Source: Deltaproteobacteria bacterium | GTDB taxonomy: Bacteria > Myxococcota > Kuafuiibacteriia > Kuafuiibacteriales > Kuafuiibacteriaceae | Assembly (NCBI GenBank): GCA_040218735.1 | Contig: JAVJQW010000008.1 | Span: forward strand, 224,001-288,000 | Reading direction: 5' to 3' | DNA length: 64,000 nt | In this document: positions 1-16,403 of the stretch, one piece after another | Position numbering within the stretch: position 1 is the stretch's first letter | How the letters are laid out: each line of letters opens with the position of its first letter | The notes under the pieces: model-generated | Databases searched by the model: none | What the model was told of the DNA's origin: nothing | Seen by the model: only the letters and a program-made list of their open reading frames with translations | Translations under genes and position numbers: made by a program

Positions 1-16
1 CGCCCACACGGGCGCG

Positions 17-631
17 ATGAGTCCGCTGACGGACTACGAGGAGCGGCTCGTCGTGCTCTTCACGGGCATCGTGCTCGGCCGCTGGGAGGACGTCCGCGCC
101 GTGCGCAAAGAAGCGCCCGCCGGCGAACCGGACCGCGGCTGGCGCGAGGCCGTGCTGCAGGCCCACCTGTTCGCCGGCTTTCCGCGCGTCGTGGAGGCGT
201 TCGAAGTCCTCGACCGCGTCGGTGGCTTGGGCACGCCGGATCCGTCGGAGCTCGACCTCGCGGTGGACAACGCCGCCGGTGAAAAGCTCTTCAGTCGCAT
301 CTACGAAGACCACGCCGACGCCGTCCGGGATCGACTCGCCGAGCACCACGCCGACTTCGGCCGCTGGATCCACGAACACGCCTACGCACGCGTGCTCAGC
401 CGCCCCGGCCTCGACCCGCACACCCGCGAGCTCCTCGCCGTCGCCGCCCTCACCGCGACCGCGCAGACCCGCCAGCTCGCGAGCCACACCAAAGGCGCCC
501 TACGGTGCGGCGCGACCCCCGCGCAAATCCACGCGGTGCTCGACGCGATCGAGACGCGCATCAGCTACGACGCGCTGCGAGCGGCGCGCCAGGTGATACT
601 GAAGTACGCGCCGCTGGATGAAGAGTCCTAA
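17..631 (+). CDS. Carboxymuconolactone decarboxylase (CMD/AhpD-like) family protein
   Basis: Two CMD-like halves; motifs 'EAVLQAHLFAGFPR' and 'YARVLSRPGLDPHTRELLAVAALTA...QLASHTKGALRCGAT'. Confidence 0.8.
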   Translation: MSPLTDYEERLVVLFTGIVLGRWEDVRAVRKEAPAGEPDRGWREAVLQAHLFAGFPRVVEAFEVLDRVGGLGTPDPSELDLAVDNAAGEKLFSRIYEDHADAVRDRLAEHHADFGRWIHEHAYARVLSRPGLDPHTRELLAVAALTATAQTRQLASHTKGALRCGATPAQIHAVLDAIETRISYDALRAARQVILKYAPLDEES

Positions 632-632
632 C

Positions 633-655
633 CCCAACGCCATTCACTCGTTGGG
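633..655 (+). terminator. Possible terminator hairpin after the CMD gene
   Basis: CCCAACG-N9-CGTTGGG inverted repeat immediately after the stop codon; weak U-tract. Confidence 0.3.
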
Positions 656-873
656 TTGGGCCCAGCGAGCACTTCATCAGGCGCGTCCGGCTCCCGCACG
701 GCCGGAGGAGCGCCGTCGTCGCGGAGCAGCGCCTCGACGTAGGGCAGCGCACCGCCGCCGCGGAGCGACTCGTCCCCTCGTCCGCCGTTGCGCCGGGCTG
801 GTGAACCAGGGGGGCCGTGGACCGCAGTGCTCCGAAGGAGGGCCGCGCTCTCGAACACCGGCTGGTATCGCTC

Positions 874-1834
874 TCACGAGCTGCCCTCCGCGCGTGCCGG
901 TGGCGTCGGATGCGGTTCACGCCACGGGAGCTCGGGACACGCACCTTGCCTGGGCTGGGTAGAGCGGCGCTCGTGAATCTTTCGAGCGATGAAGGCGCGA
1001 CCCAACACTTCGTTCGCCGCGTGAAGGTTGTGTGCGCGACACAGTAATCGCAGCTCGCCGACCACGCTCTTGGCCCCCAGCGCACGGCCGCCCACGTGAC
1101 CGAATTCGAGGTTCGACCGTTCGCTGCACCGCCGTCCGTCCGGGCTCACGTACGTGCACTGCGCGCCGTCGCGCTCGACCACCGCGCGCCGCGTTGCCGC
1201 CGGGACGTACGCTCCGCCCGCCGGCGCATCCTCGGCGGGTTTCGATCGCGGACGACTCGTCTTTCCGTTCTTCCGCTTCGCGAGCCTCTCGACGTACAGC
1301 GCGAGCGCCGCTTCGAAGATCTCCCCGATGTCGGTCCCGGGCGGGGTGAGCTGCTTGGCTCGATCCAAGAGCGCCTTGGCTTCGGCGCTCCCGTCGAAGT
1401 GAAAAGCGAACGTCTCGGCGGTCGCCGCCTCGACGCGATCGTCACTGCTCTTCGCGCCTGGGAACTCGGTGGCGATGAGCATTTCGACCTCGGCCTTGGA
1501 CTTGTTCCGCGCCTGCTCGATCAGGCCGTGGGCGTTGTCGTCGTTCATGAACTTCGAGAGCTTCGCGACGCCGGTCATGTGCAGCTCACCGGTTGCGATC
1601 ATCTGGAAGACCTCGGGCACCCGCCGCGCCGCGCGCACCACCGCGACGCGCCGGCACGCCTGGTCCTCGGTCAGCCCGAGCCTCGACGCAGAACCGAAAC
1701 AGCGAGCTGAAGCCACGCTCGACGTAGAGCTTGCGCCGCTCGATCTCTGCCATGAACCGGAGCGCCTGCACACCGCCATTCAGCTCCGCTCGAAGCGCTT
1801 CGCGAAGTCCGCTCAGGAGATCGTTCTGGGTCAT
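874..1834 (-). pseudogene. Frameshifted HNH endonuclease with DUF222-like N-terminus (multicopy myxobacterial type)
   Basis: N-terminus 'MTQNDLLSGLREALRAELNGGVQALRFMAEIERRKLYVERGFSSLFRFCVE' (ORF 1586..1864) continues in another frame as 'LGLTEDQACRRVAVVRAARRVP...GELHMTG' (ORF 874..1779), with the shift at about 1681. C-terminus 'RRAVVERDGAQCTYVSPDGRRC...LEFGH...LRLLCRAHN' is an HNH Zn-finger. Confidence 0.8.
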
Positions 1835-2094
1835 GCAAGACAGGTTGCAAGCGTTCGGGCTCATGCGTCGAAGGTATCATCGAGCCCTCGAAAGACGATT
1901 CGGCGCGGCTCGAGGAGGACGGTCTGAGACGTGCGAGGACGCACGCCATGGACCGTCAGCGTCCGGCGATGAGTCCAAGATCGAAAACTTCGAAACGGAC
2001 GGCGTTCGTCGAGGAGATAGCCCGGACAGGGCCTTGGGTTCCGTCAACCCCCAAGAGTGAGAAAGAAGATCTCACGCAACTCAGCTTGCGCGAC
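954..2094 (-). mobile_element. Putative HNH-encoding element; ends defined by homology to the adjacent miniature copy
   Basis: Similarity to 2280-2496 begins sharply at 954 (GCTGGGTAGAGCGGCGCTCG) and ends sharply at 2094 (CTTGCGCGAC). Confidence 0.5.
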
Positions 2095-2279
2095 CGGCTC
2101 TGCGGAGTGCCGCCGACCATCGAGCGGAGTCTACCGCCGTCCTCCTGCCTACATGGAGCGCGGGCCGGCGGGGCACTCCCGTGTCGGGCGATGGTTCCCA
2201 AGTGCGTCGGGCGCGCCATTCCCCGCCTACGGCCTTTCCAGGCGGGCCAGCTCCGCTAAGTCAACGGCATTGGGACCAA

Positions 2280-2496
2280 GCTGGGTAGAGCGGCGCTCGC
2301 GAATCCTCCGATCGATGAACGCGCGCCGCAAGACAGGTTGCAATCATCCGACTTCATGCGTCGAAGGTATCATCGAGCCTGCCAGGCAGGATTCGGTCGA
2401 AACGCACGACGTTCGTCGACCACAGGGGCCGGACAGGGCCTCCAGATCCGTCACCCCAAGATGAGAAAACCACCTCGGCAACTCGACTTGCGCGAC
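2280..2496 (-). repeat. Internally deleted, ORF-less copy of the HNH element (MITE-like or ncRNA-like)
   Basis: 2280-2327 matches 954-1001 (42/48 by eye); 2328-2343 is identical to 1835-1850; 2354-2379 is identical to 1861-1886; 2397-2496 resembles 1990-2094; all segments are collinear. Confidence 0.85.
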
Positions 2497-2676
2497 TGAC
2501 AATCCCGCCTTACCCAGCCGGCGAATCTCATACGTTCATCGCAGCTCCCCACCGCCGTCGGCGCAATTTCCAGTCGCACTATCCACGCGCCGGAGCGTGC
2601 CCTGCGCACGACCGGCGGTGGCCGCCGTCAGCCGCGTTCCTTGTGAGCGCGAGCCGCCAACTGAACAGCGGTGGAC

Positions 2677-3329
2677 TCAGCCCTCCGCGACTTCGCGCAG
2701 GGCGCGCGTCCTCTGCTTCAACCGCGCGAGCTCGATCTTCAGGTCCTCGTCTGCGAACGGATCTTCGAGCGCCTCCGTCGCCGCGTAGTCGTCGAGGGAC
2801 GCGCCGGCCGTCATGCGCTCCACGCTCTGGCGCGCATTCTCCAGGAGCAGGGCGTCCTTCTTCGCGCGCTCCGAGAAGCGCGTGTTCGTGAGGCGCTGCT
2901 CCAGCTCCACCGTCGCGAGCATGCCGAGGTGCTCGGTGCGTTCGCGGGTGAGCTCGCGGATCTCGTTGCTGAAGTCGTCCAGCGCGCGGCGCGCGGTCTT
3001 CGCGTTGTGGCGCGCGATCTCCACGCCCGACTCGGCGCGCTCGAGGCGCTGCACGAGGCGGCGCTTCGAGGCGAGGAGCTCCAGGCACTTTTCGTCGTCG
3101 CCGCGCTTCGCGGCGGTGCGCGCTGCGTAGTCGACACGCGCGACTTCGGCGCGGCGCTCGACCAGATCGTTCTCGAGTTTGTTCTTCGTGTAGAGGAGCT
3201 GCAGCGCCGTCTTGCGGAGCCCTTCGTAGCGCTTTTCGTGGCGCTCGATGACGCGGTCGAAGGCGCGGACGGGCGAGCGCTTCGGCCCCACCACGTCGAC
3301 GATGTCCTTCAGCATGTTCAATACCGTCA

Positions 3330-3336
<7 letters not shown>
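2677..3336 (-). CDS. PspA/IM30-family coiled-coil protein
   Basis: About 220 aa, helical; 'ARTAAKRGDDEKCLELLASK', 'NEIRELTRERTEHLGMLATVE', C-terminal 'DEDLKIELARLK'. Confidence 0.7.
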
Positions 3337-4711
<1,375 letters not shown>

Positions 4712-15431: not shown

Positions 15432-15486
15432 GAGATCACTGTACGCGCGGCCTCAGGCCTCCGCCATGCAAGATCTCGGCGACAGA

Positions 15487-15506
15487 GTGCAGTCGAATGA
15501 CTGCAC
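15487..15506 (-). terminator. Hairpin downstream of 15531..16403
   Basis: Perfect inverted repeat GTGCAGTC-GAAT-GACTGCAC; no clear U-tract. Confidence 0.45.
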
Positions 15507-15530
15507 CCGAGGTGAAGACGAGGGCGTGAA

Positions 15531-16403
15531 CTACGCCTTCATGTTGTTGATGGCGGTCTTCGCGCCTTCGTTGTGTTTGTCGAAGACGCTGCGCACCAGG
15601 TCGTACGCCTGCGTCTTCTTGTCCATGAGGCGCTTCAGCTGGAACGTCATCAGGTCGATGCTGCTGCTGCTGCTGCCGTCGCCGTTCTCCACGGTGCCGG
15701 TGCCATCCATGCCGAACCCACCGTACCCGGACGAGCCGTTCGACGAACCGACGCCCTCACCGAGCCCGAAGAGGAAGTTCACGCCGCTGCTCACGCCGCC
15801 CGCGATCCCCGCCGCCTCGGCCATGATCGCCTCGTCCATGCGGCTCAAGACGTCCCACATGTTTCCGGGCACGGAGCCGAAGCCACCGCCCGACGCACCC
15901 GAAGCGGCCGCGTTGCCCGCCGTCATCGCCGACACCGAGACGCCGCCGTCCTGGCGGCCGTCGTTGACGACGGTTAGCTGCGTCTGACGCTCGAACGCTT
16001 CGAGGATGAGCGGGTCGGTCAGCATGCGCTGCACCATGACCGCCCCGCGGCGACGGTGACGGTTGAACAGCGCCGGGAAGGGGTCCCCCGCGGAAGCGTG
16101 CTCGGCGGCGGTCTCTTGGTAGTACGTGCCCTCGACGTACGCGCCGCGCTGCTCGAGCGCCTGCGCCGGGGTGAGGTTCGACCAAGGTTGCGGGACGTCC
16201 TGGCGCGCGTCCTTCACCTGACGCGAGAACTTGTTGACGCCGACCCGCGAGACGTCGCCGGCGGACATGCGCCCGAAGCCGTTGCCGAGACGTGAGAGGC
16301 GCGCGAGCGAAGAGCGGTCGAGCGACCGCATCTGGCCGACGACGACCTCCTGCGGGATGCCGAGCTTGTTGAGCTGTTCGCTGGCGTTCGTTCCGAGCTT
16401 CAT
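15531..16403 (-). CDS. Hypothetical protein with a T3SS needle/translocator-like C-terminal helix
   Basis: GGAG/GAGG RBS; Gly/Ser-rich linker; ends 'FQLKRLMDKKTQAYDLVRSVFDKHNEGAKTAINNMKA'. Confidence 0.7.
   Translation of the reverse strand: MKLGTNASEQLNKLGIPQEVVVGQMRSLDRSSLARLSRLGNGFGRMSAGDVSRVGVNKFSRQVKDARQDVPQPWSNLTPAQALEQRGAYVEGTYYQETAAEHASAGDPFPALFNRHRRRGAVMVQRMLTDPLILEAFERQTQLTVVNDGRQDGGVSVSAMTAGNAAASGASGGGFGSVPGNMWDVLSRMDEAIMAEAAGIAGGVSSGVNFLFGLGEGVGSSNGSSGYGGFGMDGTGTVENGDGSSSSSIDLMTFQLKRLMDKKTQAYDLVRSVFDKHNEGAKTAINNMKA

Follow-up and report, generated by a model that had tools for sequence, protein, structure and literature searches.

The 64-kb window analyzed here, a stretch of contig JAVJQW010000008.1 from a deltaproteobacterial genome, carries an interrupted gene for an HNH nuclease and, directly beside it, a short piece of related sequence, which we call the mini. 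Our analysis showed that the HNH locus is a dead, decayed copy of a mobile family with a unit length of ~1.8 kb, present in about 25–35 copies in the 11.6-Mb host genome. This family is probably a non-autonomous derivative of the IS4 subgroup of insertion sequences (IS), organized like a mobile insertion cassette (MIC), in which IS4-type ends enclose an HNH gene and no transposase; the mini appears to be a fragment of another copy. Positions refer to the numbering of the 64-kb window, C numbers to contigs of the host genome, G numbers to genomes and L numbers to loci. The host assembly (G000) consists of 70 contigs, with 96.5% completeness and 68.8% G+C.

We searched for copies by BLAST of window positions 800–2300 and 1–3000 against all 11.6 Mb, and each part of the window element was covered by 22–36 alignments from other loci. 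Using the intact copy C29:143932-145737 as reference query, left and right ends of the alignments each formed a single cluster, which delimits the ~1.8-kb unit; many copies run into contig ends. The unit is composed of a ~640-nt leader, a single gene encoding a 320-aa HNH protein and a ~205-nt tail, all within 22-bp terminal inverted repeats (left end CAATGCCGTTCACTTAGCGGAC; right end, reverse-complemented, CAATGCCGTTGACTTAGCGGAT). A scan of the genome with the 22-mer, allowing up to five mismatches, returned 53 matches, of which 42 are ends of the HNH family, 21 left and 21 right. The remaining 11 (ten with five mismatches, one with four) lead into unrelated sequence, and no other gene type using these repeats was found among the 53 matches in the host genome.

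The copies are flanked by 10-bp direct repeats of the form NNN-YTAG-NNN. For example, the C29 copy has CTATTAGCCC on both sides (10/10), and two pairs of contig ends show equally perfect duplications (C45/C32, CGGCTAATCC; C53/C58, CGGCTAGAGG). A further duplication, in C33, is preserved at 9/10 positions within one contig; the flanks of the C18 copy agree at 3/10 positions and show no matching duplication. By manual count, YTAR stands at positions −7 to −4 in 26/42 ends (15/21 left, 11/21 right). The tetramer CTAG is rare in this genome, with 1,891 occurrences in 11.6 Mb, so that targets for the element are scarce. They often coincide with stop codons, as at the C33 copy and in the window, where the TAA (629–631) of the upstream open reading frame (ORF) 17–631 falls inside the left flanking 10-mer. 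Median pairwise identity among copies is 89%, nearest neighbours mostly share 92–94%, and one pair reaches 98.6%; judged by this divergence, the copies are old.

In addition to coding copies, we found an ORF-less derivative in C5, C57 and C49, which keeps both terminal repeats, the ATG and a few codons. The same junction recurs at two or more sites, with two distinct left flanks, so the derivative has moved; with both repeats, no ORF and more than one site, it has the features of a miniature inverted-repeat transposable element. The original prediction, made from the window alone, had placed the HNH gene in a mobile element with defined ends and had expected ORF-less copies to exist. Both expectations were borne out, the first by the multi-copy family with its terminal repeats and duplications, the second by this derivative with its shared junction and different flanks.

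A second repeat was noticed at the same kind of site. A palindromic sequence of ~80 bp ending in GTTATGGC-CTAG abuts several element ends (C4:~162210-162290, C14:~780-860, C32:~15480-15560 and flanks in C46, C49 and C50), and a 12-mer taken from it occurs 13 times in the host genome. In C38, C60 and C70, palindrome-type sequence stands in place of the outer part of the left repeat. The palindrome is apparently a further small element sitting, like the HNH family, at CTAG sites.

Next to its genomic distribution, the ends of the family point to its affiliation. The ends of Escherichia coli IS4, TAATGCCGATCAGTTAAGG, resemble the HNH element repeat, CAATGCCGTT(C/G)ACTTAGCGG. Table 1 of PMC2266710 lists, for the IS4 subgroup, the end consensus -AATR--------WTW---- and direct repeats of 10–13 bp; as far as that table goes, CAATGCCGTTCACTTAGCGG fits the consensus and the 10-bp duplication falls within the range. 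An exact 19-mer of the repeat was found in 48 metagenome contigs. In 21 of these an InsG-like ORF lies just inside the 19-mer (26–42% identity, E down to 4e-87), and the two such ORFs that were scanned both match Nterm_IS4 and DDE_Tnp_1; in 16 of the other 27 contigs the sequence inside the repeat is shorter than 700 nt. None of the 48 has a close HNH relative on the inner side of the 19-mer. The complete metagenomic IS4-type elements (n = 14) measure 1.43–1.62 kb, exact 10-bp duplications flank 5 of the 12 that could be evaluated (including CGTCTAGCTC and GCGCTAGGGC), and YTAR occurs at the same offset in 27/46 evaluable flanks (manual count). Since end sequence, duplication length and the NNN-YTAG-NNN target motif are the same, the ends of the HNH element belong to a DDE-encoding IS4 lineage. 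The interior, however, differs: in place of the Nterm_IS4/DDE gene, the ~1.8-kb HNH element, longer than its metagenomic IS4 counterparts, contains an unrelated gene with a ParB-like helix-turn-helix (HTH) and an HNH domain, together with a long leader. In a blastx comparison of the HNH element with IS4 transposases nothing fell below E 0.2. Compared with an autonomous IS4 element, it thus has the ends and the duplication, and no DDE transposase with Nterm_IS4, DDE_Tnp_1 and the YREK motif.

Two further observations concern metagenomic carriers of these ends. On the metagenome contig L220 (188–3544), a 505-aa ORF (188–1705) is similar to the HNH protein in its N-terminal part (29.5% identity, E 4e-6) and has a complete IS4-type element (1709–3544) inserted at its 3′ end; adjacency of this kind could be a route by which such a cassette arises. 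Furthermore, L187, L212, L214, L228 and L230 carry the G-variant of the repeat followed by a common sequence, GCACCCCGCGTAGGCGGGGG..., that is neither IS4 nor HNH. Possibly, this is a further derivative of that IS4 lineage, one that carries cargo or has a solo end; on the metagenome contig L228, which has a single repeat, a second end was not found.

A comparable arrangement was found with ends of another subgroup. Across 41 related genomes the HNH family is patchy and multi-copy, occurring in 5, with about 20 copies in G036. The relatives in G036 share 35–41% identity and lie inside repeats of 1.6–1.95 kb with the same layout as in the host (leader of about 580–600 nt, ORF, tail of about 170 nt). 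Their ends, CTGACGATTCATCACATCTT and CTCATGATTCGCCACAAGTC, agree with the IS50-subgroup consensus in the part of PMC2266710 used here, and their duplications of about 9 bp, which often lie within the loop of a hairpin repeat, with the 8–9 bp given there for that subgroup. The IS50-type end pattern has 29 matches in G036 vs 3 in the control; most pair around HNH copies and a few are unpaired. One pair (G036:C2:493272-494068) lies 797 bp apart, leaving too little room for the 386-aa HNH ORF, and bounds a miniature of the G036 family that has no ORF. Within the phylum, 36/301 genomes contain these ends. They enclose 1.48-kb elements encoding Tnp_DNA_bind and DDE_Tnp_1 in G056, and HNH genes in G091 and G137. 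Within a set of nine genomes with IS50-type ends, only the DDE gene is present in G056, G291 and G146, and only repeat-bounded HNH genes are present in G036, G091 and G137. G212 has both a DDE gene and an HNH gene, unlinked on different contigs, and in G132 and G176 neither was found.

We further looked into the cargo protein. At least six full-length copies of the gene are without internal stop, and the intact protein (P0001) has no Pfam match at E ≤ 10, including DUF222 (PF02720); a six-frame search of the host genome also returned no DUF222 match at E ≤ 1. The Pfam model thus does not bear out the description as DUF222-like in the original prediction. The REP13E12 or DUF222-HNH repeats of actinobacteria are multi-copy and diverged, and their ORF combines a helical N-terminal part with a C-terminal HNH domain. 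All of this also holds for the family studied here, but the Pfam DUF222 match is missing in P0001 and in the host genome. REP13E12/HNH/DUF222 is counted as a repeat class in the part of PMC10589994 used here. PADLOC and PDB sequence searches with the intact protein gave nothing usable, and in NCBIfam its HNH region weakly matches IscB (E 0.0021, 17 bits vs a cut-off of 175). At E ≤ 0.001 we found 130 relatives, which carry PF01844 or PF14279; some are named McrA-like or HNH.

An AlphaFold model built from an alignment of 53 sequences reached a predicted local distance difference test (pLDDT) score of 89.8; the single-sequence fold was poor (pLDDT 43.8). In the model, the predicted N-terminal helical domain resembles the DNA-binding domain of ParB, KorB and Noc (Z 6–6.8), and the predicted C-terminal domain resembles the HNH domains of GVE2 (Z 7.5), McrA (7.2) and IscB (7.0), the last with a root-mean-square deviation of 2.2 over 59 residues. 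An RNase-H-like or RuvC fold is absent from the predicted structure, and a Foldseek search of the model against the PDB gave no match at E ≤ 0.001. C227, C237 and H247 do not vary among the 53 sequences, and C266, H269 and N270 are nearly invariant. By its modelled fold and by the conserved Cys pairs and His/Asn residues, P0001 belongs to the HNH nuclease superfamily.

The variation among copies carries the signature of selection. Diversity at ORF codon positions 1, 2 and 3 is 0.059, 0.053 and 0.172, and reaches 0.209 at 4-fold sites; the leader has 0.14, with no 3-periodicity, and the tail 0.13. Frameshifting deletions of 1–2 nt number 4 in the ORF vs 75 in the shorter leader. The codon bias of variants is strongest for those common to several copies and weaker for singletons. 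At the level of sequence comparison, codon-position diversity and the few frameshifts show that the HNH ORF has been kept intact by purifying selection across copies. In the tail (657–873; 232–440 in the reference copy L031), the HNH frame remains open for ~62 codons past the TGA, up to a stop within the left repeat. Tail diversity is also 3-periodic in this frame (0.119 / 0.100 / 0.178, permutation p 0.0007), and the tail carries frameshifting deletions as well. This periodicity could come from read-through, from the relic of a coding region or from an ORF on the antisense strand.

Mobile insertion cassettes, such as MIC231 of the IS231 subgroup in the Bacillus cereus group, consist of IS-type repeats around non-transposase genes, and their mobilisation in trans is presumed. 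The HNH element likewise consists of IS-type repeats and a duplication around a non-transposase gene. It differs from MIC231 in that HNH cassettes occur in both the IS4 and IS50 subgroups, in about 30 old, diverged copies, with a cargo under purifying selection and with no cognate IS found in 4 host genomes. On balance, we favour a MIC-like, non-autonomous IS4-subgroup derivative as the probable nature of the HNH locus. The cassettes would have been inserted in trans by an IS4-type DDE transposase whose gene has since presumably gone from the assembled genome, and the HNH protein would be cargo rather than integrase. Selection on the ORF suggests that it may nevertheless have some function at the level of the element; our best guess is that the nuclease could support double-strand-break-driven copying or maintenance of the cassette.

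Several results weigh against this reading. The only host genes matching PF01609 are IS701-like and IS1182-like, with unrelated repeats; PF13006 has no match in the host genome, and tblastn with five metagenomic IS4 transposases and InsG found no match there. Similarly, none of G036, G091 and G137 (0/3) has a match to PF14706 or to the G056 transposase, and the only PF01609 gene of G036 has other repeats. In total, a cognate transposase was found in 0/4 genomes with repeat-bounded HNH cassettes, three of which come from one taxonomic family. In addition, the IS4-like part of the element is limited to about 20–30 bp per end, and the element has no blastx match to IS4 transposases. Finally, a passive passenger would be expected to decay, yet the HNH ORF is conserved.

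If the cassette reading is right, a design known mainly from the IS231 group now also appears in the IS4 and IS50 subgroups. In the part of PMC2266710 used here, the modular cassette aspect is described as not seen outside IS231. A literature search of titles and abstract starts returned no report of HNH cargo within IS4-family ends. The cargo is always of the same kind, joining a ParB-like HTH to an HNH nuclease, and about 30 copies reside in one genome. For annotation, such loci should be recorded as IS4-family derivatives with HNH cargo and not as RNA-guided systems.

A more far-reaching proposal, which we offer tentatively and consider rather unlikely, is that ParB-HTH/HNH genes are parasites or replacements of DDE insertion sequences, repeatedly occupying IS4- and IS50-type ends and displacing the transposase, with the nuclease needed for their own spread. 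This spread could proceed by break-induced copying into resident IS copies or by the nuclease acting on IS ends. Should the nuclease indeed aid spread or displace the transposase, it would represent a new type of conflict among mobile elements and a starting point for explaining the multi-copy families of HNH repeats in other phyla.

A specific version, in which the takeover has been completed, seems unlikely to us. Here, the HNH cassette would cut resident IS4-family copies, repair would copy the cassette in, and all transposase genes would have been replaced; sites and duplications would stem from an earlier DDE element, with the HNH nuclease acting as a drive. Such a course would explain the DDE-type footprint, the purifying selection and the absence of transposase from all four genomes together, and it agrees with HNH cargo inside the ends of two IS4 subgroups. 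The split distribution over the nine genomes with IS50-type ends (three DDE only, three HNH only, one both unlinked, two neither) also speaks for it. However, the short stretch of IS4-like sequence at each end offers little homology for repair. No intermediate containing transposase and HNH gene was found, and in L220 the IS4 copy lies beside, not around, the HNH-like ORF. Moreover, copies with a median identity of 89% still have intact ORFs, which a completed takeover would not maintain.

That the HNH element is autonomous, with the HNH protein as its own transposase acting on IS4-like ends, is highly improbable. True, HNH is the only ORF tied to the repeats in the host genome and in G036 (29 matches vs 3 in the control), purifying selection acts on it, searches of four genomes found no DDE partner, and ORF-less derivatives with both repeats have spread, as in autonomous/non-autonomous pairs. 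Yet the HNH element shares its end sequence, duplication length and target motif with IS4 elements that encode a DDE transposase, and a different enzyme is unlikely to reproduce all three. Among relatives in other genomes, none of 84 loci contains the repeat motif. A search for inverted repeats around 52 relatives gave scores at the level of controls (mean 13.2 vs 12.7 and 12.5, in a test that weak repeats would escape), and the repeat units of these relatives end without inverted repeats. Furthermore, we know of no HNH nuclease with strand-transfer chemistry.

Within the window, the element spans 635–2272 (Table 1), its left end being mapped from other copies; 20 alignments to other copies begin at 729. 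Aligned by eye against the left ends of the family, the left repeat agrees with the consensus at 14/22 positions, and the right repeat corresponds to the scan match C39:226272 with two mismatches. The flanking 10-mers agree at 5/10 positions, so no intact target duplication is left at this copy. A frameshift breaks the HNH ORF into ORFs 874–1779 and 1586–1864. Because of a deletion of 2 nt after 1680 and a D-to-G change beside the catalytic His (LEFGHV vs LEFDHV), we regard this gene as a pseudogene. The leader has lost ~190 bp between 2098 and 2105. The element had at first been bounded at 954 and 2094, with an ORF reading out of it for lack of a stop codon. These boundaries gave way to the 22-bp repeats, and as the left end of the family lies at 635, the TGA is internal; it is carried by 31/31 copies covering that site.

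Table 1 Features of the HNH locus and the adjacent mini in window coordinates.
Feature	Position	Strand	Remarks
Left flanking 10-mer GTCCTAACCC	625–634		Target-duplication position
Left terminal inverted repeat, degenerate, CAACGCCATTCACTCGTTGGGT	635–656		3′ of HNH gene
Tail, HNH stop codon to left repeat	657–873	−	From comparison of copies
HNH pseudogene, ParB-like HTH and HNH	874–1834	−	ATG 1832–1834, TGA 874–876
Non-coding leader upstream of HNH ORF	1835–2250	−	~640 nt in intact copies
Right terminal inverted repeat CTCCGCTAAGTCAACGGCATTG	2251–2272		Reverse complement CAATGCCGTTGACTTAGCGGAG
Right flanking 10-mer GGACCAAGCT	2273–2282		Overlaps start of mini
Mini, fragment of another family copy, both ends truncated	2280–2585	−	From alignments to copies

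Window positions 1–3600 were also compared with reads and contigs from four public runs. A clean empty-site joint was not found in these data; the joints listed have short sides (21 nt) or join homologous repeat parts. A 1,279-nt contig (run X2, record 9) matches window 1–624 with 8 differences and then continues with 403 nt foreign to the window. Its break at the left target 10-mer may mark another allele of the site.

The mini consists of four blocks that are collinear with the neighbouring HNH locus and in the same orientation, as originally predicted for 2280–2496: 2280–2334 corresponds to 954–1008 (85%), 2328–2396 to 1835–1903 (81%), 2397–2457 to 1990–2050 (79%) and 2478–2496 to 2076–2094 (89%). 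Homology had been thought to stop sharply at 2496. Against other copies, however, it extends to about 2567–2585, with 13 alignments ending at 2567. The last 89 nt (2497–2585) match 25 other copies and nothing in the neighbour, because the latter has lost the ~190 bp mentioned above. A deletion exactly at the start codon had also been proposed. The ORF is indeed missing; the exact point could not be upheld, as the first two blocks overlap at 2328–2334 and leave it ambiguous by about 7 nt. The junction shows microhomology between 1003–1008 (CAACAC) and 1836–1841 (CAAGAC), and it is not that of the C5/C57/C49 derivative. Also missing are both terminal repeats and the equivalent of 1904–1989. Without terminal repeats, the mini is a fragment and not a functional ORF-less, non-autonomous copy, as which it had been introduced. 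It would be the debris of another copy, internally deleted and truncated at its ends, whose ORF was probably removed by a deletion at the microhomology.

A one-off tandem duplication of the neighbour followed by deletions, the alternative named in the original prediction, is very unlikely, even if the mini adjoins a full copy in collinear order and the same orientation. Over three segments, it is no closer to the neighbour (85%, 88% and 78% identity) than to other copies (89%, 88% and 79% at most), its last segment is found elsewhere in the family only, and it begins 7 nt beyond the neighbour's right repeat. Being equally close to other copies and unmatched by the neighbour over its last 89 nt, the mini is an old, independent fragment. 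The arrangement of full copy and mini recurs in contigs from other studies' runs (X1 record 8; X4 records 31 and 32), so it is no assembly artefact and is older than ~1% strain divergence.

The leader of the family was analyzed for signs of a structured RNA. Lacking 3-periodicity and rich in deletions, it is non-coding. Rfam gave no match at E ≤ 1 for window 600–2800, and the consensus fold of 20 leaders had no covariation support (RNAalifold covariation term +1.57, double changes in 9/108 pairs), in a comparison with limited power because the copies are closely related. The sole short hairpin that varies is 5 bp long. Shuffle z-scores of the leader are moderately negative (−2.5 to −5) and similar for both strands, and an intact copy has no promoter-like site and one terminator-like site vs 1.4 expected. 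Leader and tail DNA compared with 81 relatives' loci produced one 28-nt match (E 0.006), which we take as chance.

The idea that the locus is an RNA-guided element of the IscB, TnpB or HEARO type, with a structured RNA abutting a variable guide and the mini as an ORF-less RNA copy, has almost no chance of being correct: the leader is unusually long, roughly keeps its length in the G036 relatives and contains several well-conserved patches, and the HNH region has its weak IscB match, but Rfam and covariation are empty, z-scores do not distinguish the strands, the predicted protein structure has no RuvC fold, terminal inverted repeats and target duplications mark the ends of the element, and the mini has neither end. 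The likeness to IscB/HEARO (OMEGA) systems is confined to a similar HNH fold and a non-coding stretch 5′ of the ORF. Those systems have IS200/605-type ends with no inverted repeats or duplication, whereas the HNH element has both; it has no RuvC domain and no omega-RNA-like structure.

Further repeats with HNH genes were observed in other genomes. G003 has 11 matches to the family (about 6 gene copies). Five of its HNH-gene repeats (L040, L044, L047, L051 and L054) are 97–98% identical and have thus been recently active. No inverted repeats are recognisable at their ends; the boundaries are sharp, with CTA(A/G) at the right end and a CAGTGAACCG motif repeated at the left side. In one metagenome-assembled genome, BLAST revealed repeated segments of ~140 nt with 91–97% identity, located about 450–900 nt 5′ of the HNH ORF (L131, L147 and L163).

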